Source: Vicinamibacteria bacterium
Lineage (GTDB): Bacteria; Acidobacteriota; Vicinamibacteria; Marinacidobacterales; Marinacidobacteraceae
Direction of reading: 5' to 3'
Assembly: GCA_963668695.2 (NCBI GenBank)
Contig: CAXXLQ010000004.1
Coordinates: forward strand, 1,984,001-2,048,000
DNA: 64,000 nt
Shown in pieces: positions 37,227 to 53,592 of this stretch. The first letter of the stretch is position 1; the number at the start of each line of letters is the position of its first letter. The notes beneath the pieces are model-generated. The model saw nothing but the letters and a program-made list of their open reading frames with translations, did no database searches and was not told the origin of the DNA. A program made the translations under genes and the position numbers.

Positions 37227-38957
37227 CTACTCCCCGGCGTTCCAGACCACCTTTCCGCCGACGATGGTCATCGCGACCTCCGCCTCGGGGATCTCCTCGT
37301 CCGGCACCGTGAGGATGTCCTTCGTGAGCACGACGATGTCCGCGTACTTCCCTGGCGTCAGGCTCCCCTTGACGTCCTCCTCAAAGGCGGACCAGGCGGC
37401 CGCCATCGTGTAGGAATAGAGCGCCTCCTCGCGGGTCAGGGCTTGCTCGGGATAGAACCGGGTGCCGTCGGGCAGCTCCCGGGTCACCGTGGCGAAGTAG
37501 CTCGGGAGGGGATTCACGTCCTCTACCGGAGCGTCGGTGCCGTTGGTCACCAACGCCCCGGAATCGAGCAGCGACCGCCACACGTAGGCGCCGGTCCGGG
37601 CGCGTTCGTCGCCGAGCTTTTCCGGAACCCAGGGTCCGTCCGAGGTCGCGTGGACCGCCTGCATCGAGGCGATCACGCCGAGTTCGCCGAACCGCGGAAT
37701 ATCGTCGGGGTGGATGTGCTGCGCGTGCTCGATCCGGAAGCGGAGGTCGGGCCCGTTCACTCCCGCCTCGCCGAAGGCCCTTTCGTAGGCGTCGAGGATC
37801 TCGCGGTTACCCCGGTCGCCGATCGCGTGGGTGTTCACCTGGAAGCCGTGGCGGATGGCGATCCGCGCGGTTTCCTCGATGTCCTCTACTTCCTCGATCA
37901 CCAGACCCGCGCTCGAGGGCATGTCGTCGTACGGCTCGAGCAGCCACGCGCCGTGGGCGCCGAGGGCGCCGTCCACCTGCCGCTTGATGGACCGCACGGT
38001 AAGGAAGCCGTCGGCGTGGTTCGTCATCAGGAAGTCGGGAAGCCTGGCGTCCATCTCCTCGTTCGACTGTCCCCGCACCATCACGTAGAGCCGTATCGGA
38101 AGCCGCCCGGCCTCCGCCATCTCCTTGAAGAAGGAGATCATCTCGAACGAGGATCCCGCGTCCTGGAACGAGGTGACTCCCTTGCGGAGCGACTCTTCCG
38201 CGGCCAGTTCGAGCTGCAGCTCCAGCTCCGCGCGCCGTTCCTCGTCGCTCCGTTCCGCCAGGGCCCGATCACGGGCGCGCGCCACGAGGCGCTGCGCCGT
38301 CTCCCGGAGCGCTCCGGTCGCCTTGCCTTCGGCGTCCCGCACGATGGTGCCGCCCGGCGGGTCGGGGGTGCTCCGGTCGATCCCGGCCAGCTCCATCGCG
38401 AGGGCGTTGGCGAAAGCGGCGTGGCCGCTCGCGTGCCGGAGCAGCACCGGGTTCTGCGGGGAAATCTCCGATAGACCCAGGTGATGGGGTAGTCCCTCCA
38501 CCGCGCCGCCCGGGATCTGGTCCCACTTCTCCTGATGCCAGCCGCGCCCGTCGATCCAGCCCCCCTCGGGAGCCTCGGCGACCGCCTCGGCGACCATGTC
38601 CACGATGCGGTTCCAGTTGTCCGCCTCGCCCAGCTTCAGGATCATCTGGGCGTTTCCGACCCCCATGAAGTGGCCGTGACCCTCGATGAAACCGGGAATC
38701 GCCAGCCTGCCCTCGAGCTGGATGACCTCGGTGTCGGGCCCGGCGGTCGCCTCGATCTCCGCGGTGGTGCCCACGGCCGCGATCCGGCCGTTCCGAACCG
38801 CCACCGCTTCCGCTTCGGGGTGGTCGGGATCCACGGTCACGACCCGGCCACCGAGCAGCACCAGATCGGCGGGACCGCCGATATCGGGCGCCTGGGGGCC
38901 GCAGCCGAACGCCAGGGGTACGGCGACCAGAAACGTGAGACGAGAAAGGAGACGCAT
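37227..38957 (-). CDS. YtcJ-like amidohydrolase, lipoprotein
   Basis: PGFIEGHGH, THAIGDRG, RIEHAQ, NGTDAPVE; lipobox LAFGC. Confidence 0.9.
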   Translation of the reverse strand: MRLLSRLTFLVAVPLAFGCGPQAPDIGGPADLVLLGGRVVTVDPDHPEAEAVAVRNGRIAAVGTTAEIEATAGPDTEVIQLEGRLAIPGFIEGHGHFMGVGNAQMILKLGEADNWNRIVDMVAEAVAEAPEGGWIDGRGWHQEKWDQIPGGAVEGLPHHLGLSEISPQNPVLLRHASGHAAFANALAMELAGIDRSTPDPPGGTIVRDAEGKATGALRETAQRLVARARDRALAERSDEERRAELELQLELAAEESLRKGVTSFQDAGSSFEMISFFKEMAEAGRLPIRLYVMVRGQSNEEMDARLPDFLMTNHADGFLTVRSIKRQVDGALGAHGAWLLEPYDDMPSSAGLVIEEVEDIEETARIAIRHGFQVNTHAIGDRGNREILDAYERAFGEAGVNGPDLRFRIEHAQHIHPDDIPRFGELGVIASMQAVHATSDGPWVPEKLGDERARTGAYVWRSLLDSGALVTNGTDAPVEDVNPLPSYFATVTRELPDGTRFYPEQALTREEALYSYTMAAAWSAFEEDVKGSLTPGKYADIVVLTKDILTVPDEEIPEAEVAMTIVGGKVVWNAGE

Positions 38958-39016
38958 GGGATTCCTCCGCGGGACCGGGCAGCGTAACGCCATGCTCGGT
39001 TGGGTACAGTCCCGGG

Positions 39017-40852
39017 ATGCTCAAGCCTCGATCGCTCCGCGCGTCCGTCGGCGCGCTCCTGCTCCTGCTGCCCGGTCCCGCCGCCGCCCAGTGGTATCCC
39101 GAGCCGGATCTCGTGTTGACCGGCGCCGAGGTTCGGACCGTGGACGCGGAGGACTCGCTCGCCGAGGCCCTCGCCATCAAGGATGGCCGCGTCGTGGCGG
39201 CGGGGACGGCCTTGGAGGTCGGCGCGCTGGCGGGTCCGAACACGCGGACCGTGGACCTCTCCGGGAAGACGGTGATCCCCGGCATCCAGGACTCGCACAT
39301 CCACTTCCTGTCGCTCGGGCGCGACATTACGAACGGCGTGGAGCTGAGTTACGCGGAGTCGGCGGAAGACATCGCGGCCGGGGTACGCAATCGGATCGCG
39401 GAGAGTCGGATCGAGCCCGGCGAGTGGGTGGTGGGGCGCCGCTGGGACCAGTTCAAGTACCCGCAGATGGTGACCCGCTGGCAGCTCGACGAGGCCGCGC
39501 CCGCGAACCCGGTGGCGCTCTACCGGGTGTACCGGGGCGTCGCGGTGAACACCGAGGTGTTTCGCCGCATGGGGATCGAAGACGGCGATCCGTCCACCTG
39601 GCCGTCGTGGTGGCTCGAAGATCCCGACAACTTCACCTTCGAGGACCAGGTCCTGCGGGAGTCCCGGGAGGTGGTAGTGGACGGCGCGGCGGCGACCCGG
39701 GAGATCCCGACGGGAGTTTTTCTCGGGTCGCGGGCATCGCGCCTCGTCACGGAGCGGCCTCCGCCCGATGACTTCGAGGACGATGTCGAGAGCGTCCGGC
39801 TGGGGGTTGAGGAGTTGCTCTCGCTCGGCGTGACCTCCATCGTGGACCCCTCGTCCCGGATGGGACACAACATGCGGGTCTATCAGGAAGCAGTGAACCG
39901 CGGAACCTTGCGGCTCCGGATCGCCGCGGTGTACGAGGGCACCTTCAACACCCACGCGCCCGAGGCCATTTCCTCACACCTCGACGGCATCAAGGTCAAC
40001 AATCTCGGCGACCGCTTCCTCCGCTGGCGCGGAGTCAAGGTGTACGGCGACGGGGGCGTGGGCACCCGGAGCGCCTGGATGTCCGAGCCCTTCCACATGT
40101 GGGACGAAATCGAAGGGGAGCGGAACCTGGGCAATCCCGTGGTGGAAAGCTACCCGGAGCGCGAGGCGCAATACCGCGCCATCCGGAGCCACGGCTGGGA
40201 CCTCCACACCCACAGTTGTGGCGACCAGGCGATGCGCCAGACCGTGGACCTCTACATGGAGCTGCTCGACGAGATGCAGGAGGAGAGCGGAGAACTTCCC
40301 GACCTGCGCTGGAGCGTCATCCACGCCTACTTCCCCATCGAACCCAAGACCCGGGTCCTCGACGACATGGCCCGCTACGGCATCGTGGCCGCCACCAATC
40401 CGGTCTTCAACTGGCAGCAGGGGTTCTCGTTCGCCGCCAACTCGGGGCCGGAGCGGATGGCGCGGCTACAGCCTTTCCGCAGCTACATGCGGGGCGGGGT
40501 GATCATGGCTTCGGGCTCGGATTACGGCGTGACCACTCACAACCCCTGGATGGGCTTCTACGCTCTCCTGACCCGCAAGGACCAGAAATTGGGAATCGTT
40601 CACGGAGAGGACGAGACGGTCACGATTGCGGAGGCGCTCCGCTCCTACACCTGGAACGGCGCTTTCCTGACGCACGACGAGGAGGACCGCGGGAGCCTGG
40701 AGTCGGGCAAACTGGCCGATCTCGTGGTGCTCGATCTTTCGGGGCTCGATGTGCTGGAGGAGGATCCCGAACTCCTCTTCTCGATGCGCGAGCGCGTGGT
40801 GGCCACGATGGTGGAGGGAGAGATCGTGCACGGGAGTCTCCCGTCGCGGTAA
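39017..40852 (+). CDS. YtcJ-like amidohydrolase, secreted
   Basis: PGIQDSHIH, THSCGD, VIHA, SGSDY, GKLADLVVLD. Confidence 0.9.
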   Translation: MLKPRSLRASVGALLLLLPGPAAAQWYPEPDLVLTGAEVRTVDAEDSLAEALAIKDGRVVAAGTALEVGALAGPNTRTVDLSGKTVIPGIQDSHIHFLSLGRDITNGVELSYAESAEDIAAGVRNRIAESRIEPGEWVVGRRWDQFKYPQMVTRWQLDEAAPANPVALYRVYRGVAVNTEVFRRMGIEDGDPSTWPSWWLEDPDNFTFEDQVLRESREVVVDGAAATREIPTGVFLGSRASRLVTERPPPDDFEDDVESVRLGVEELLSLGVTSIVDPSSRMGHNMRVYQEAVNRGTLRLRIAAVYEGTFNTHAPEAISSHLDGIKVNNLGDRFLRWRGVKVYGDGGVGTRSAWMSEPFHMWDEIEGERNLGNPVVESYPEREAQYRAIRSHGWDLHTHSCGDQAMRQTVDLYMELLDEMQEESGELPDLRWSVIHAYFPIEPKTRVLDDMARYGIVAATNPVFNWQQGFSFAANSGPERMARLQPFRSYMRGGVIMASGSDYGVTTHNPWMGFYALLTRKDQKLGIVHGEDETVTIAEALRSYTWNGAFLTHDEEDRGSLESGKLADLVVLDLSGLDVLEEDPELLFSMRERVVATMVEGEIVHGSLPSR

Positions 40853-41564
40853 CAGCCGGTGGTGGAACCCGGGTGAGCGCCGAGGTCGGCCAGTTCTCCC
40901 GGTGGGGCCAGTCCTCCCGGTGGGGGCCCGGCTGACGAGGCGCGTGAGGGAGGAGCCCCCACCGGGAGAACTGGCCCGGGTGTATTTCGACTGAAACGCA
41001 ACGATGAGCGGCGCGCAGCGACGCGGTGAACAGCCGGTGGTGGAACCCGCGGGAGCGCCGAGGCGCCCGGCTGACAAGGCGCGTGAGGGAGGAGCCCCCA
41101 CCGGGAGAACTGGCCCGGGTGTATTCCGACCGAAACGCAACGATGAGCGGCGCGCAGCGACGCGGTGAACAGCCGGTGGTGGAACCCACGTGAGCGCCGA
41201 GGCCGGTGAGGCGCCCGGCTGACAAGGCGCGTGAGGGAGGAATACCGGGTGTATTCCGACCGAAGCGCAACGATGAGCGGCGCGAAGCGACGCGGTTCAG
41301 CCGGGATGGATCGCCGGCCGAACGCCGCGCGGGTTTCATCACCGGTTGTTTGGCCGGTGGTGGATCGCCGGCCGAGCCCCCACCGGGAGAACTGGGCCGC
41401 GTGGGTTTCACTGCCGGCTGTCTGGCCGGGATGGATCGCCGGCCGAGCCCCCACCGGGAGAACTGGGCCGCGTGGGTTTCATCACCGGTTGTTTGGCCGG
41501 GATGCATCGCCGCTCGAGCCCCCACCGGGAGAACTGGGCCGCCGGGGTTTCACCACAGGCTGTT
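40851..41564. mobile_element. MITE copy 7, amplified multimer
   Basis: Left module repeated three times (40851, ~41029, ~41168) and right module repeated; ends CACCACAGGCTGTT. Confidence 0.88.
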
Positions 41565-41605
41565 AAGCGGAGGATCAAAGGATCCCGGATTCGACAAATC
41601 GCCGG

Positions 41606-41634
41606 TTGACATGCCGCCTGAGGAGCGGTACAAA
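41606..41634 (+). promoter_or_regulatory. Sigma70-type promoter
   Basis: TTGACA-17 bp-TACAAA. Confidence 0.7.
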
Positions 41635-41640
41635 CGCAAA

Positions 41641-41921
41641 CACCAACTTGACCCGGTTTCGGAAAGGGGGTCGGAAATGACTGCACCGCCGGACGACTTT
41701 GCACTCCAGGCCCCAACGGGGGTTCCGGGAGGGTCTGAAGGGAGCTTCCCGAACCGCGACGGGGCCTGGAACTCACGGGACGAGTTCCCGGGGTCCTGAC
41801 CACTCATACCGGCAGAAGCGGGGCTGATTGTCAGGGGCCGGAGCGCAGCAAGCGCCCGCCCCTACCGCTCCCCACTGCGATGAGGCCTAGCGGTTTCAGA
41901 GGGACCCCGGGGCTTTTTTTT
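41641..41921 (+). ncRNA. Candidate structured ncRNA or 5' leader of unknown family
   Basis: Long hairpins at 41705-41770 and 41787-41911, then T8; directly downstream of the promoter. Confidence 0.55.
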
Positions 41922-43040
41922 GCCCGCGGCCGACGGGCGGATCGCCGCGGCCTACTACTGACTGCCCTACTACTGACTGCTCTGGCGGGCGCCGTTTTGG
42001 GGCTCTCCTGCGACGCGCGTCTCTATCTCTACATTCATGCCGGCCGGGAGACGCTGCTGCCCGGCCGCGCGTACGGTGACGCCCTGGTCACCCAGGGATA
42101 TCTGGCATCCGTGCCCCCCGGCAGGGGGCTTCCGCCGGGGGAGCCTCCCCGCCGCTTCGTTCTCCGGCATCCGTTCCGCTTTCCCGATTGGAACGGCACC
42201 CTGGTCATCGGCGCCCACCGCGGCCTCGGGGGCATCCGGCGCGGTCCGGGCGGCGCCGAACTCGGGAGTGGTGAGACCGAACTGGACGATCTGGTGGGCT
42301 GGTGGGCGCTCGATCAGGGGTTTGCCTGGGCGAGCTTCGACCGGGCGGGGCTCGGGGCGGGACCCGATGCGTACCGGCTCACCGAAGCGTTCGCCCGGCT
42401 GATGTTCGACCAGATCCGGCCGCGCCTGGCGCTGGAGCCCGAGCGCACCATCCTCCTCGGTTACGGGGAGGGGGGCGGGCTCGCGCGGCACGCCGCCGCC
42501 GCTGAGGAGGAAACTCTCGACGGGGTGGTCCTGGTCGCCGCCACTCTGGGTGACCCCGAGGGGGCGGCCCGCCGGCGCGCCGCCCGCCTCGCCCTCGCGG
42601 CGGAACGGGAAGCAAGCGAGGCCGGCCTTGCCGCCTACGCGGCGGCTGCCGGAGTCGGTACGGAGGGGAGCCGGTTCTGGCCCTTCTACGACGCCGCCGC
42701 CACTGCCCCGAGTCCGGTGTTGCCGGCGCCGCCCTCGACTCTCCGGCGCCCGGTCGTCGAGGTGGTGGGGGCGCTCGACGATTTCGTGCTGCCCGAGGTG
42801 CTCTCCTACCGCGATCGCGTCCAGGCGGCCGGCACGGCGGAGCTGCACGAACTGCGCCTGGTAGAGGGGGCCTGGCGGGTCGGACCGGGAGACGACGCAG
42901 TCGACGAGATCCAGGCCTGGGCGGAGGAACTCGGTTTGTCCGCGGCCGACCGCGCCGCTCTCGCCACCGGCAGGAGTCTGGCGCCCGAAGTCAGAAAAGC
43001 CCTGTCGGACCTCGACGCGCGCCTCCGTGAACCCACTTAG
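41880..43040 (+). CDS. Alpha/beta-hydrolase-like putative lipoprotein (start uncertain)
   Basis: LGLSC lipobox, FPDWNGTLVI, LLGYGEGGG elbow, VVGALDD. Confidence 0.6.
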   Translation: MRPSGFRGTPGLFFARGRRADRRGLLLTALLLTALAGAVLGLSCDARLYLYIHAGRETLLPGRAYGDALVTQGYLASVPPGRGLPPGEPPRRFVLRHPFRFPDWNGTLVIGAHRGLGGIRRGPGGAELGSGETELDDLVGWWALDQGFAWASFDRAGLGAGPDAYRLTEAFARLMFDQIRPRLALEPERTILLGYGEGGGLARHAAAAEEETLDGVVLVAATLGDPEGAARRRAARLALAAEREASEAGLAAYAAAAGVGTEGSRFWPFYDAAATAPSPVLPAPPSTLRRPVVEVVGALDDFVLPEVLSYRDRVQAAGTAELHELRLVEGAWRVGPGDDAVDEIQAWAEELGLSAADRAALATGRSLAPEVRKALSDLDARLREPT

Positions 43041-44322
43041 TAGCCGGTTGGCGCCGAAGGCAAGGACGCCGCGGCCGGCGCGGGCCTTCGCCGTCCTGCT
43101 CGGCGGAGCGATGCTTGCCTCGACCGCCTATCTCCTGGTCCTGTCGATCACGCCGCTCCTGTCCCGCCGGTATCTCCCCGATTCTTCGTGGATCGGCCTT
43201 CCGAACGCCGCCCTGATTCTGGGCGTGGCGGCTGGAACTCCGCTCCTGACCTGGCTCTTCGCGCGCCGGGGCAGGCCCTTTTCCCTGGGTCTGGGCCTCA
43301 GTGTGGCCGCCTGCGCCGCCGTAGGCCTGGCGCTCTCGGCGTGGTGGGAAGCGGGTTTCCTGGTCCACTTCGGCGTGAGCCTGATGCTCGGCTGCGGATA
43401 CGCCGGCTATCACCTGACCCGCTATACGGCGGCGCTGCTGGTCCCGGCGAGTCGGAGCGGAAGGGCGATCGGGCTCGTGGTCTGGGTGGCCGTGGCCGGT
43501 GCCTTCGTCGCGCCGCTCATTTTCGGGTGGATCGAGCGAATCGTCGCGCCCCGCGGGAGCGAGGCGTTTTCGCTTACCTATCTGTGCGCCGCAGCCTTGT
43601 TTGGGCTCGCCGCCGTCCTGTTCCTGCGCAGCCGGTCGCTTCGGGCGCGGCGTGCGCTCGGGGTCCGCCCGGTCGAACCGAAGCGGGAACGGGTCCCTCA
43701 GCCATCCGAATCGTCAGCGCTCGGGCGGACTTTCCGGCTCGCCGTCGTCTCGCTGGTTACGGCGCAGTCGGGGATGATGGTCCTCATGACGATGGCCCCG
43801 CTTCAGATGATGGGAAGCGGGGGTTCCCTTTCCGGGCTCGGAGCGATGATGGGCGCCCATAATCTGGGCATGTTCGCCCTGTCTCCCGTGGTCGGCATCC
43901 TGTGCGATCGCTTCGGCGAGCGTCCCATCATCGCGCTCGGCGGCGCGACGCTGGTTGCGGCGGGGCTCCTGGCCGCGTTTGGTCCCGGCCACGGGGTCGG
44001 GCTCGGCGTCGCGCTCTATCTCGTGGGTCTCGGCTGGTGTCTGGCCTTCGTGGCCGCGAGCACCCTGCTTTCGGAGGGGCCGGACTCACCGGCCAAGGTA
44101 CGGCGGCAGGGCTTCGCGGACGCGCTCAACTGGCTGATTGCCGCCGTCGCCTGCGTCACTTCGGGCGCCCTCATGACGCAGTTCGGATTTCAGGCCGTCG
44201 CTTTTGCGTGCGTGACGCTGGGCCTGGTCTCCCTCGCCGCCGCCCTCGCCGGCTTCGCCCACCCCTCTCCCGAACGTCACGCTCGTCAGGTGGTTCCCGG
44301 ACGGGACCACGAACTGGAGTAG
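43027..44322 (+). CDS. MFS transporter
   Basis: About 12 hydrophobic segments; GILCDRFGER motif. Confidence 0.88.
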   Translation: MNPLSSRLAPKARTPRPARAFAVLLGGAMLASTAYLLVLSITPLLSRRYLPDSSWIGLPNAALILGVAAGTPLLTWLFARRGRPFSLGLGLSVAACAAVGLALSAWWEAGFLVHFGVSLMLGCGYAGYHLTRYTAALLVPASRSGRAIGLVVWVAVAGAFVAPLIFGWIERIVAPRGSEAFSLTYLCAAALFGLAAVLFLRSRSLRARRALGVRPVEPKRERVPQPSESSALGRTFRLAVVSLVTAQSGMMVLMTMAPLQMMGSGGSLSGLGAMMGAHNLGMFALSPVVGILCDRFGERPIIALGGATLVAAGLLAAFGPGHGVGLGVALYLVGLGWCLAFVAASTLLSEGPDSPAKVRRQGFADALNWLIAAVACVTSGALMTQFGFQAVAFACVTLGLVSLAAALAGFAHPSPERHARQVVPGRDHELE

Positions 44323-53000: not shown

Positions 53001-53527
53001 CGTCGCGGGTCCACGTGCCGCACCAGTTCAACATCAACGGCACCTACCGCACCCCCGGAGACAACCCGATCTTCAGCGGCTGGGCGCTTTCAGTGGTGAC
53101 GATCATGCGGAGCGGTTTCCCGGTGGTGGTCTACCAGAACTCGAACCCGCTGAGTTCCTACGGCTTCAACCACCAGCGGCCCACGAGCGCGAACCTGAGC
53201 GGCGGCGGCAACCCGACGGGAAACCACACCAGTTACCTTTCGGCTGGCGACGCGCAGCTCACCCAGGGACTCACGCTGAGCAACTCTCCGAACACCACGG
53301 CCTCGGTGCGCAGCCCGGTCCTCATCAACTGGGACGTCGCGCTCGAGAAGACCACGCGGATCTACGAGGACATGAACCTGACCCTGCGGTTCGAGTTCAT
53401 TGACCTCTTCAACCACGTGAATTGGCGCGGACCCCGCACGATTCTCGGTAACAGCAACTTCGGGAGCATCCCGGGTACCCGCGGCTACCCGAGGACCTTC
53501 CAGTTCATGGGCAAGATCACCTTCTAG
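50015..53527 (+). CDS. TonB-dependent receptor, Oar-like
   Basis: Carboxypeptidase-regulatory N-domain, ETVTVTG, YDAEMGRTGGG, FIQDDW, PRVGFAY, C-terminal F. Confidence 0.93.
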   Translation: MRSFLFRTVALLGVLGLATGAFAQTFQGGIRGVIRDADGGVLPGVTVTLNNPDTGVSRTAVANAVGEYNFSSVQPGTFTLRAELSGFAPYVSEGLIIGVSSFLVLDATLVIGGIEETVTVTGETPLIETATASVASSVTRAELDVLPTPGRNVFILAVGTPNVVHTGNPVWVKQSDQTNSSLLSLGGGPLRGNNYTVDGVSTTDLRNRTAIIPIFDAVQEMKVQINTYDAEMGRTGGGVFNVIARGGTNNWAGGGTWQKRPGKVDTLWRALSYTDQLSSDANPDRTFADRPFDLWGGSFGGPILSDRTFFWAAAEGFEDLLADNTEVIIPTSAEAAGDFSGSGTTIYNPFDLDANGNRRPFPGNVIPSHMVDPAGRGLAQLLTNLGPGGPISSSGAQATTALQADLNLTHAFSDNWQSSLSYLYYTSKEGAFQQYTDLLGLDSAPAYGIGAADLLRDVHVVAFNNTFVVGDASVLTLRYGQMYFNDSVINPEYGIDQIRGELGIQGGFLDQIGAQDGYISQFPSVSVSNFGDGGSTHGSWGNTDTQWWSREVSGTYSMFLGNHTVKYGGQWRRMGLHNASFSNGFSMSFAQKFTQGPSPTAPDSGSGSGLADLLLGIPNGGSATIAQAADVFIDYYGGFIQDDWRPSQNLVLNLGLRVERESGLMEDDNGFAVGWDRSNPYPMQVGLDTSLEGSLPGFPLRGGLMYAGLDGNPTHQWDPPGIKLGPRVGFAYTINPETVIRGGYAVFWAPYAIPSGGGASNLGTYGYTNVTSLATSVDGKTPPTATASNPFPNGIGNPIGNANGRLQNIGGNVYFNEQFRASPYINKWSLDLQRDIGNDLAVKIGYVGSQGADIPIGGTNNSSININQLADQYLSLGDRLNDEYPNPFYGDSRFGSFSGAETLPLGQLLRPYPHFRNVLARHVSSGKSLYNALRVEFEKRFRGNWGARINYTFTKHEDNIYENNQLLENETNVIYNTPDECAFAKCGPLSDADYGPSRVHVPHQFNINGTYRTPGDNPIFSGWALSVVTIMRSGFPVVVYQNSNPLSSYGFNHQRPTSANLSGGGNPTGNHTSYLSAGDAQLTQGLTLSNSPNTTASVRSPVLINWDVALEKTTRIYEDMNLTLRFEFIDLFNHVNWRGPRTILGNSNFGSIPGTRGYPRTFQFMGKITF

Positions 53528-53548
53528 GCGATCTCAACCCAGAACCTT

Positions 53549-53580
53549 GGGGGCGGGCCTTCGGGCCCGCCCCTTTTTTT
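53549..53580 (+). terminator. Rho-independent terminator
   Basis: GGGGCGGGCC-TTCG-GGCCCGCCCC followed by a T run. Confidence 0.88.
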
Positions 53581-53592
53581 GTCGGAGCGCCG

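Follow-up and report, generated by a model that had tools for sequence, protein, structure and literature searches.

The subject of this work is the region 41606–41921 of a 64,000-nucleotide stretch of DNA from a Vicinamibacteria bacterium (genome G000, contig CAXXLQ010000004.1, positions 1,984,001 to 2,048,000; in the following the window), which lies directly upstream of a lipoprotein gene and a gene for a major facilitator superfamily (MFS) transporter. On balance, we take this region to be no free-standing RNA gene but the front of an operon of two genes, made up of its promoter and its 5′ leader. With a confidence that is likewise somewhat better than even, we interpret the leader as a leader-peptide attenuator: Complete translation of a small open reading frame (ORF) that contains a Pro-Pro-Asp motif would open a helix which otherwise acts as a clamp or terminator ahead of the lipoprotein gene. 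A sequence-only reading of the same DNA had put forward a stand-alone RNA of about 280 nt, possibly 6S-like, and, as an alternative, an attenuator that controls the hydrolase-like gene and the MFS gene downstream. The former finds no support in the form proposed, as the 5′ half is a conserved small ORF, the fold is branched, and no model of 6S RNA, the signal recognition particle (SRP) RNA, tmRNA, or RNase P RNA matches the locus at E ≤ 10. The latter is the one that the comparison with relatives favors: In 27 of 27 leaders the same lipoprotein gene follows directly downstream, with the closing helix over its start region. Positions are those of the window, and features lie on the forward strand (+) unless stated otherwise.

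The comparison is based on a BLAST search of 60 related genomes, which recovered the element in 25 of the 27 other genomes of the family and, outside the family, only two matches of 23–25 nt. After the set had been enlarged by weakly matching genomes and by G018, which was reached via its lipoprotein gene, it comprised 27 leaders from seven genera (g1–g7) of one Vicinamibacteria family (Acidobacteriota), that is, those of G000 and of 26 of the 27 other family genomes. The sole one of the 28 family genomes that has no leader, G002, is 66% complete and likewise lacks the lipoprotein gene. An exact-pattern scan of one genome per species (185,579 species) returned 19 stretches, all from metagenome-assembled genomes (MAGs) of Acidobacteriota/Vicinamibacteria, some of them named 'Candidatus Marinacidobacterium', and all from the same species as loci already in the set. 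A metagenome scan with the lipoprotein alignment yielded two loci, both from close relatives and both with the leader, which add no diversity for the test of the alternative pairing discussed below. Three distant lipoprotein homologues in another family (f3) were inspected and have no such leader, and literature searches found no paper on this leader and none on 'Marinacidobacterium'.

Transcription of the leader is predicted to start from the promoter that the sequence-only reading had pointed out, and which is indeed present at 41606–41634 and unique in the window: It consists of the −35 box TTGACA (41606–41611), a 17-nt spacer, and the −10 box TACAAA (41629–41634), with the predicted transcription start at about 41641–41643. 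In the 64 kb of the window there is a single instance of TTGACA-N17-TANAA, versus 0.00 expected from 100 shuffles, and the homologues have a TTGAC(A)-N16-19-TA(C/T/A)AA box at the same position. The relatives are similar in sequence from about position 41604, where the −35 box lies, to just past the long helix described below; the upstream flank of the leader is not conserved. A generic sigma-70 and terminator scan of the window called 0 promoters and, with a rule that demands loops of 3–8 nt, no terminator at the locus; the promoter escaped it because the rule requires a T at position 6 of the −10 box, where TACAAA has an A. The leader locus is single-copy in the 4.1-Mb genome.

The 5′ half of the leader is occupied by the small ORF, which comprises 40 codons and a TGA stop codon (MTAPPDDFALQAPTGVPGGSEGSFPNRDGAWNSRDEFPGS, 41677–41799; TGA at 41797–41799; peptide MTAPPDDF...DEFPGS) and is identified by the conservation of its frame and codons. 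Its ATG is preceded at a distance of 6 nt by the Shine–Dalgarno (SD) core GGGGG (41666–41670), which is replaced by GGAGG in more distant genera. In every one of the 27 leaders a GG(A/G)GG is located 6–8 nt 5′ of the ATG, and the ATG and the Pro-Pro-Asp are kept just as completely, with D, E, Q, or N as residue 7; the conserved Pro-Pro-Asp-Asp codons are found at 41686–41697. In the most distant genera the core reads AAGGAGGU, followed by 8 nt and then AUG GCN CCG CCG GAC GAC UUC. Between the leaders there are synonymous changes (GCA/GCG/GCT, CCG/CCA, GAC/GAT), and the six codons after codon 2 show 5, 1, and 8 extra nucleotide states at codon positions 1, 2, and 3, respectively. In genus g4, precisely one codon is missing (MAPPDDF, MTPPDDF) and the ATG is shifted accordingly, and both a 42-nt deletion in G011 and the much shorter version in G016 are in frame. 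The leader peptide varies in length from 14 to 42 residues, and its conservation is limited to the first 7–8 of these. Genome-wide, the pattern M(x)(x)PPD(D/E) has six matches, and the only one with an SD is this small ORF, in which four of the six residues directly after Met (T-A-P-P-D-D) are D, E, or P. Judged by its sequence, the leader thus appears to possess a short ORF with its own ribosome-binding site, as attenuators do, as well as a D/E/P-rich motif within about six residues after Met, as mgtL-like leaders do. The words GACCC (41650–41654) and GGGTC (41668–41672), which the sequence-only reading had listed, are both present; as RNA they could pair and would then occlude the SD of the small ORF. 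By eye, GACCC is found in genus g1 and not in several other genera, so that it could be no more than an additional layer in some lineages. As an alternative, GGGGGUC, which contains the SD, was tried in a pairing with GACCCC; this is not kept in G026 (by eye) and was rejected.

The leader RNA as a whole is predicted to be strongly folded (RNAfold of 41641–41925: −143.4 kcal/mol, z = −3.6), and none of 200 shuffles attains such a fold. Unless stated otherwise, the covariation counts refer to the alignment of the 27 leaders. Taking the structure as a whole, the observed values are attained by none of 500 shuffles, and the pairing falls from 91% to 54–59% once the partners are displaced by a single column; the structural conservation for which the sequence-only reading had suggested looking is found in the homologues. 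The central element is a long-range helix formed by the 5′ strand UCCCGGGGUCC (41786–41796) and the 3′ strand GGACCCCGGGG (41902–41912), both assigned from alignment and covariation: 99.3% of the alignment cells are paired and 5 of the 11 pairs are compensatory, one of them, for example, being G-C in 20 and A-U in 7 sequences. The 5′ strand consists of the last codons of the small ORF and is directly abutted by the stop codon. This helix was already contained in the sequence-only reading as a long interrupted one, CCCGGGGTCC/GGACCCCGGG (41787–41796 with 41902–41911; 5′ strand in RNA letters CCCGGGGUCC), along with the correct statement that ATG 41880 lies in the domain enclosed by it.

Upstream of the long helix, and in this genome inside the small ORF, hairpin B spans 66 nt (41705–41770; 41705–41714 with 41761–41770), with 88.8% of its cells paired and changes on both sides in 8 of 10 pairs; G011 has a shorter version of it, and in G016 hardly any of it is left. 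The structure had been recognized from the single sequence and covaries, and what had gone unseen is that it constitutes the variable middle of a small ORF. In our own reading, hairpin B would start at the front edge of a ribosome that holds the Pro4-Pro5 codons. A mini hairpin, GGAACUC/GAGUUCC (41768–41788; 41768–41774 with 41782–41788), overlaps both of its neighbors as previously described, sharing 3 nt with the base of hairpin B and 3 nt with the long helix; with 81.3% of cells paired and 3 of 7 pairs changed on both sides, its support is moderate. The long helix encloses a variable, branched domain D (41812–41878), which is closed by GCAG/CUGC (41812–41815 with 41875–41878; 95.2% paired, 2 of 4 pairs changed on both sides) and is long in g1 and no more than a short hairpin in G020, and hairpin E1, GAGGCC/GGUUUC (41882–41897; helices 86.7–88.9% paired, 3 of 5 pairs changed on both sides), which begins at the G of ATG 41880. 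An inner CTCAT/ATGAG pairing that had been proposed earlier finds no support, as most relatives have CTGAC and it competes with the covarying hairpin 41882–41887/41892–41897. The helix AACUUG/CGAGUU of the minimum free energy (MFE) structure was likewise discarded, its 5′ word being absent from most relatives.

The long helix is directly followed by a run of eight T residues (41914–41921), which is present as reported before, would encode Leu-Phe-Phe if ATG 41880 is the start, and in this genome is likely the tail of an intrinsic terminator. Counted by eye across the 27 leaders, the corresponding U-run comprises at least five U in 12, four U in 6, and three or fewer U in 9. In genus g1 the only canonical in-frame start of the lipoprotein gene is ATG 41880, located in the enclosed domain at the foot of E1, 33 nt before the end of the helix. 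In G016, G017, G018, G020, G023, G024, and G027 an in-frame ATG or GTG is situated 3–17 nt after the helix, and the GGGG or GGGAG of the helix is its SD. Between leader ORF and gene there is, consequently, the terminator or SD-sequestering helix that is typical of attenuators.

The end of the small ORF is positioned relative to this structure in two ways. In Architecture I, found in 19 of the 27 leaders (g1, g2, g3, and g7; including this genome), it falls on the 5′ strand of the long helix, while in Architecture II, found in the other 8 (g4, g5, and g6), the small ORF stops in the apical loop of hairpin B. How a ribosome at a given position would affect the helix was assessed by constraint folding, in which the ribosome footprint is forced to be single-stranded and the pairing probability of the helix 3′ strand is read. 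With the footprint at the stop codon in this genome's leader, this probability drops from 0.80 to 0.21, and it is lowered in 6 of 6 Architecture I leaders, from 0.80–0.99 to 0.00–0.32 in five of them and to 0.64 in G021. With the footprint at the Pro codons, the long-range pairing stays at 0.90–0.99. For all 8 Architecture II leaders, the nascent RNA that extends past a ribosome halted on the stop codon is predicted to pair the 3′ half of hairpin B or the linker with the helix 5′ strand (−16.4 to −21.6 kcal/mol).

The leader stretch is also present in RNA libraries, namely as assembled contigs in four runs of sponge metatranscriptomes from two studies. Two runs of the first study contain contigs over 41652–41901 (word depth 179) and 41653–41901 (132) with 0 differences; 19 loose letters that precede 41652 in one of them are presumably sequencing adapter. 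In the second study, contigs extend over 41670–41871 with depths of 371–1152 (X1) and over 41731–41861 with depths of up to 1579 (X4). The lipoprotein ORF is covered by contigs of its own at depths of 3–9, and one contig, 41873–42213 (depth 8.7, 9 differences), bridges the T-run. Gaps between the contigs (41902–41921 in X2/X3; parts of the ORF) are not evidence of absence. Taken together, these values give a hint, and only a hint, that the leader accumulates far above the lipoprotein ORF, with some read-through. The transcript 41641–41920 that had been predicted earlier roughly agrees with the contigs over 41652–41901. As these are assembled contigs whose last position differs between the studies (41901 in two runs of one, 41871 in the other), calling an RNA 3′ end was given up.

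From these observations we derive the following model of the attenuator. The long helix would represent the default OFF state, which only a ribosome that finishes the small ORF prevents. In Architecture I, the ribosome at the stop codon would mask the helix 5′ strand directly, as in pyrBI (pyrL); in Architecture II, it would free the 3′ half of hairpin B, which could then pair with the helix 5′ strand, following the 1:2, 2:3, 3:4 logic of trp. The Pro-Pro-Asp codons 4–6 would be hard to translate, at a point where the nascent chain is too short to stabilize the ribosome: Slow or aborted translation at these codons would leave the helix intact and the operon off, and fast passage would turn it on. 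Candidate causes of such slowing are low prolyl-tRNA, low activity of elongation factor P (EF-P), and low Mg2+. EF-P is encoded in the genome, and the sequence A-P-P-D combines strong contexts for EF-P dependence. In this genome the helix could also terminate transcription, with T8 following directly.

A number of points weigh against this model. The polarity of the switch and its signal are guesses. Translation of the small ORF is inferred, and its codons 3–6 are nearly invariant (GCA CCG CCG GAC), which GC-rich codon bias or a constraint at the RNA level could explain as well. Moreover, the C-terminal part of the peptide is not kept, and in G004 and G008 a 1-nt deletion shifts the last codons and places the stop 8 nt further downstream. 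The full-length folds of Architecture II leaders keep the helix with the footprint at the stop codon (0.91–1.00 in 4 of 5 tested; 0.46 in G018), and the model therefore needs a kinetic, co-transcriptional argument. The alternative 2:3 pairing of this architecture shows 84.1% of cells paired and two pairs changed on both sides, values that 29 and 121 of 500 shuffles reach (8 sequences). ATG 41880 has no recognizable SD. Furthermore, the RNA data are assembled contigs that carry no strand, ends, or levels and whose depths do not allow one part of a gene to be ranked against another, and DNA carry-over is uncontrolled. Finally, the U-run is missing in 9 of the 27 leaders and termination therefore cannot be the common mechanism; the common denominator would be a clamp that covers the place where the lipoprotein gene starts, to which a terminator has been added in some lineages, including this genome.

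The two architectures can be compared with several known systems. In pyrBI of E. coli the leader ORF, pyrL, runs into the terminator hairpin, as in Architecture I, and the hairpin fails to form, permitting read-through, only if a ribosome keeps pace with the polymerase. According to a published study, tight coupling across pyrL prevents the pyrL terminator, and a polyproline motif placed before pyrL raised termination in the absence of EF-P (PMC5021804); this engineered arrangement is the one that occurs naturally in Architecture I. The two leaders are unlike in other respects: There is no homology in sequence or structure, pyrBI senses UTP-dependent polymerase pausing and not a peptide motif, and the long-range helix considered here encloses about 105 nt with two inner domains and can, in the nine leaders without U-run, only hide the ribosome-binding region. 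A likeness at the level of the peptide exists to mgtL of mgtA (Salmonella, E. coli). Motifs rich in D, E, and P at the N-terminus, the EPDP of MgtL among them, abort translation while the exit tunnel is empty and are used for sensing, as stated in two sources (10.1101/2021.02.02.429294; PMC12856214). According to these, mgtL is a very short leader ORF with a motif of Pro and Asp/Glu after the start (M-EPDP versus M-x-A-PPDD here), and abortion or pausing with the exit tunnel empty reshapes the leader RNA. However, the two are not homologous, and mgtA uses Rho and a Mg2+ riboswitch-like leader in which a stall means ON, whereas our leader uses a helix with or without U-run in which a stall would mean OFF. 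Pro-Pro motifs have also been inserted into HisL, where they drive an attenuator reporter (PMC8129111).

Architecture II resembles the trp and his attenuators in its four strands, with pairings predicted to be mutually exclusive, and in an ORF that ends in region 1 and its loop. The trpL ORF carries two Trp codons, and the Pro-Pro of our leader recalls these adjacent codons for the same residue. In trp and his, however, a ribosome stalled on the regulatory codons covers region 1 and switches the operon ON, whereas the Pro codons considered here are located upstream of region 1; a stalled ribosome would therefore leave 1:2 and 3:4 intact and should turn the operon OFF. In addition, the regulated genes are not genes of proline biosynthesis, and the 2:3 covariation is weak. 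In ermC and cat attenuation, the SD of the next gene is hidden in a hairpin, which opens when a drug stalls a ribosome inside the leader. Our leader is similar in that a leader ORF precedes an SD-hiding structure, the position of the ribosome would decide, and an MFS transporter is among the genes; it is dissimilar in that a ribosome would have to arrive at the end of the ORF, and there is no evidence that the lipoprotein and MFS genes confer resistance.

The observations described above were also weighed with respect to other readings of the region. One of them is a riboswitch-like element, in which the junction 41786–41912 binds a small molecule and the ligand stabilizes the helix, thereby hiding the ribosome-binding site or terminating transcription, with the small ORF being incidental or separate. 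The covarying closing helix with its two covarying inner helices would suit such an element, as would the helix 3′ strand, which in several genera holds the downstream SD in the usual layout of a translational OFF switch, and since no known family matches, it would be a new class. We nevertheless consider it quite improbable: Within 41797–41901, conserved unpaired positions are few and amount essentially to an A-G-G ahead of the 3′ strand and a word resembling GACC behind the 5′ strand, the size of domain D varies between about 65 nt and a 20-nt hairpin, and a riboswitch leaves unexplained both the SD, ATG, and Pro-Pro-Asp found in 27 of 27 leaders and the end of the ORF, which tracks the helix 5′ strand in 19. 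Alternatively, the RNA itself could be the functional product, either as a stand-alone small RNA (sRNA) of about 250–280 nt that is trans-acting or dual-function or as the mRNA of a 14–42-residue peptide, in which case the lipoprotein gene would be a read-through neighbor. The leader is covered from 41652 to 41901 as one contig in two runs and its word depth is much above that of the ORF, as one would expect of a stand-alone RNA; terminated leaders, too, commonly accumulate. The strong promoter, the helix plus T8 in this genome, and the conserved N-terminus of the peptide point in the same direction. A functional peptide, however, is difficult to reconcile with a conservation that ends after the first 7–8 residues, a length that varies threefold, and the lack of any hydrophobic or structured part, and an independent RNA with the absence of the T-run in 9 of 27 leaders. 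Moreover, in several genera the lipoprotein gene starts 3–9 nt after the helix, which leaves no room for an independent promoter or ribosome site, and the synteny with one and the same gene persists across seven genera despite a differing upstream flank. We therefore view a stand-alone RNA or peptide as an unlikely explanation.

Hardly any weight remains for a divergent housekeeping RNA, that is, 6S RNA or the SRP RNA that is missing in the family. What invites this thought is the distribution: The element is found in 25 of the 27 other family genomes and nowhere convincingly outside, and the SRP RNA model behaves in the opposite manner (0 of 28 genomes in the family versus 33 of 33 outside). 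The 6S model scores only 17.6 bits, and does so elsewhere in the genome, and in our own reading the series GGUC-GGAA-AUGAC-NGCA loosely recalls SRP helix 8. This 'core', however, is nothing other than SD, start codon, and codons, the element is locked to one downstream gene, and no 6S or SRP model matches 41000–42400 at E ≤ 10. As for SRP RNA, the genome holds no match to a strict form of its helix-8 motif (5′ ..AGG.., GNRA loop, 3′ ..AGCA..), RF00169 and RF01854 do not match, and neither Ffh nor FtsY was detected in the genome, and it was rejected along with 6S RNA. The latter forms an extended rod, base-paired over most of its length, in which a large central bubble imitates an open promoter; our leader has a branched fold of hairpin B and a three-way junction, and RF00013 does not match at the locus. 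More generally, and in line with the sequence-only reading, which had called the element a candidate novel non-coding RNA, Rfam at gathering level has no family at the locus; on 41000–42400 at E ≤ 10 there are only chance-level matches to miRNA and leader families (15–21 bits). ARAGORN found nothing in the window, and tmRNA (167 bits) and RNase P RNA (312 bits) are located elsewhere in the genome. Elsewhere in the window, the only gathering-level Rfam match is suhB/mmgR (RF00519) at 53511–53587 (+), with 45.4 bits versus a gathering value of 41; this family was described from Alphaproteobacteria, and in an acidobacterial genome the match could be a false positive or reflect a hairpin RNA that arose by convergence. 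We give equally little credence to a −1 frameshift at C_CCG_GGG (41788–41794) that would fuse the small ORF to the lipoprotein frame. The heptamer follows the X_XXY_YYZ rule for −1 frameshifting, the two frames differ by −1, and in this genome the −1 frame is open through ATG 41880 into the lipoprotein ORF. Long open frames are, however, expected by chance in GC-rich DNA; G013 and G005 have CCG GAG and a −1 frame that hits a TGA within few codons, and the eight Architecture II leaders stop about 45–65 nt earlier, so that these relatives contradict the frameshift and it was rejected.

The genes that would be controlled by the attenuator encode a 386-residue lipoprotein (gene 1, 41880–43040) with the lipobox LSC (Cys44, codon 42009–42011) and weak matches to alpha/beta hydrolases, and an MFS transporter (gene 2, 43027–44322; MFS_1, 2.3e-26), the gene of which overlaps the end of the lipoprotein gene by 14 nt. 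In the relatives the MFS gene is usually the next after the lipoprotein gene: It adjoins it in G016, G018, and G019, is 1.5 kb away in G026, and was not found in G017. The lipoprotein gene is single-copy in 26 of the 27 other family genomes (69–95% identity); outside the family there are only homologues of 34–44% identity, in 5 of 19 genomes of family f3. Databases label the lipoprotein merely as 'hypothetical protein', and NCBIfam, Pfam, and a sequence search of the PDB return no specific function for it. Its AlphaFold model is weak (mean pLDDT 63), and Foldseek finds only generic alpha/beta hydrolases with TM scores of 0.3–0.4. In all 14 aligned lipoproteins of the family, G, A, or R takes the place of the serine of the GxSxG elbow, which is the nucleophile of alpha/beta hydrolases, and a 36%-identical homologue from outside keeps GLSMG. 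Such a pattern suggests that the lipoprotein is probably a non-catalytic binding protein.

The region upstream of the promoter contains tandem repeats at 40926–41203 (139 nt × 2) and 41324–41564 (71 nt × 3.4), which belong to families with hundreds of copies, whereas the leader is, as had been claimed, unique. BLAST of the 4.1-Mb genome gives 1030 matches to the 139-nt unit (376 near full length) and 443 to the 71-nt unit (153 near full length); in G011 one repeat copy sits between leader and lipoprotein gene. This upstream repeat region is flanked by divergent Amidohydro_3 genes at 37227–38993 (−) and 39017–40852 (+), and the product of the latter shows a weak similarity to Xaa-Pro dipeptidase models that is far under the cut-offs.

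A further finding concerns the family as a whole, which appears to lack the entire SRP pathway, that is, Ffh, FtsY, and SRP RNA. The SRP RNA model RF00169 matches in none of the 28 family genomes and in all of 33 genomes of other families, a set that includes one unpublished genome, G036. The GTPase domain of the SRP type (Ffh, FtsY) shows the same distribution (0 of 28 versus 33 of 33, mostly with two matches per genome outside the family). The Ffh M domain is absent from G000, has a single match in the 27 other family genomes, namely in a 134-residue open frame on a small contig of G016, and is found in 32 of the 33 genomes outside. A tblastn search of G000 with the Ffh proteins of two relatives gave a best E of 0.55. 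SecY and YidC were found in G000, and the method therefore works on this genome; the YidC (60KD_IMP) match is split into two adjoining pieces (G000:C4:1091884-1092431), which could reflect an insertion, a frameshift, or an assembly error. Several family genomes consist of 1–3 contigs, several being closed, yet are 87–95% complete. A literature search, judged by titles and the openings of abstracts, found no relevant paper on SRP loss in such bacteria. The co-occurrence of SRP loss and leader is uninformative with regard to a functional link, because the relatives share ancestry. That the leader peptide is a dedicated sensor of ribosome performance (EF-P, prolyl-tRNA, or Mg2+), which has been wired in two ways to the same helix and gates an envelope module in an SRP-less lineage, is for us a tentative and rather doubtful extension of the model. 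That the module of lipoprotein and MFS transporter helps the biogenesis of membrane proteins without SRP seems very unlikely.

Cis-acting leaders are almost undescribed in Acidobacteriota, and the 27 leaders from seven genera provide a clean comparative case. The combination of a hard-to-translate N-terminal motif with a covarying clamp helix has so far been mainly an engineered one (polyproline before pyrL, Pro-Pro in HisL). With two RNA architectures, one peptide, and one helix in a single family, the evolution of attenuator wiring becomes directly comparable. The locus also calls for caution when hunting for non-coding RNAs (ncRNAs) in GC-rich genomes: A promoter, a structure, and a U-run may conceal a 40-codon ORF. 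Finally, a family apparently without SRP whose genomes have the size of those of free-living bacteria (3–5 Mb, closed genomes included) bears on the presumed universality of co-translational targeting, and this side finding may outweigh the leader in importance.

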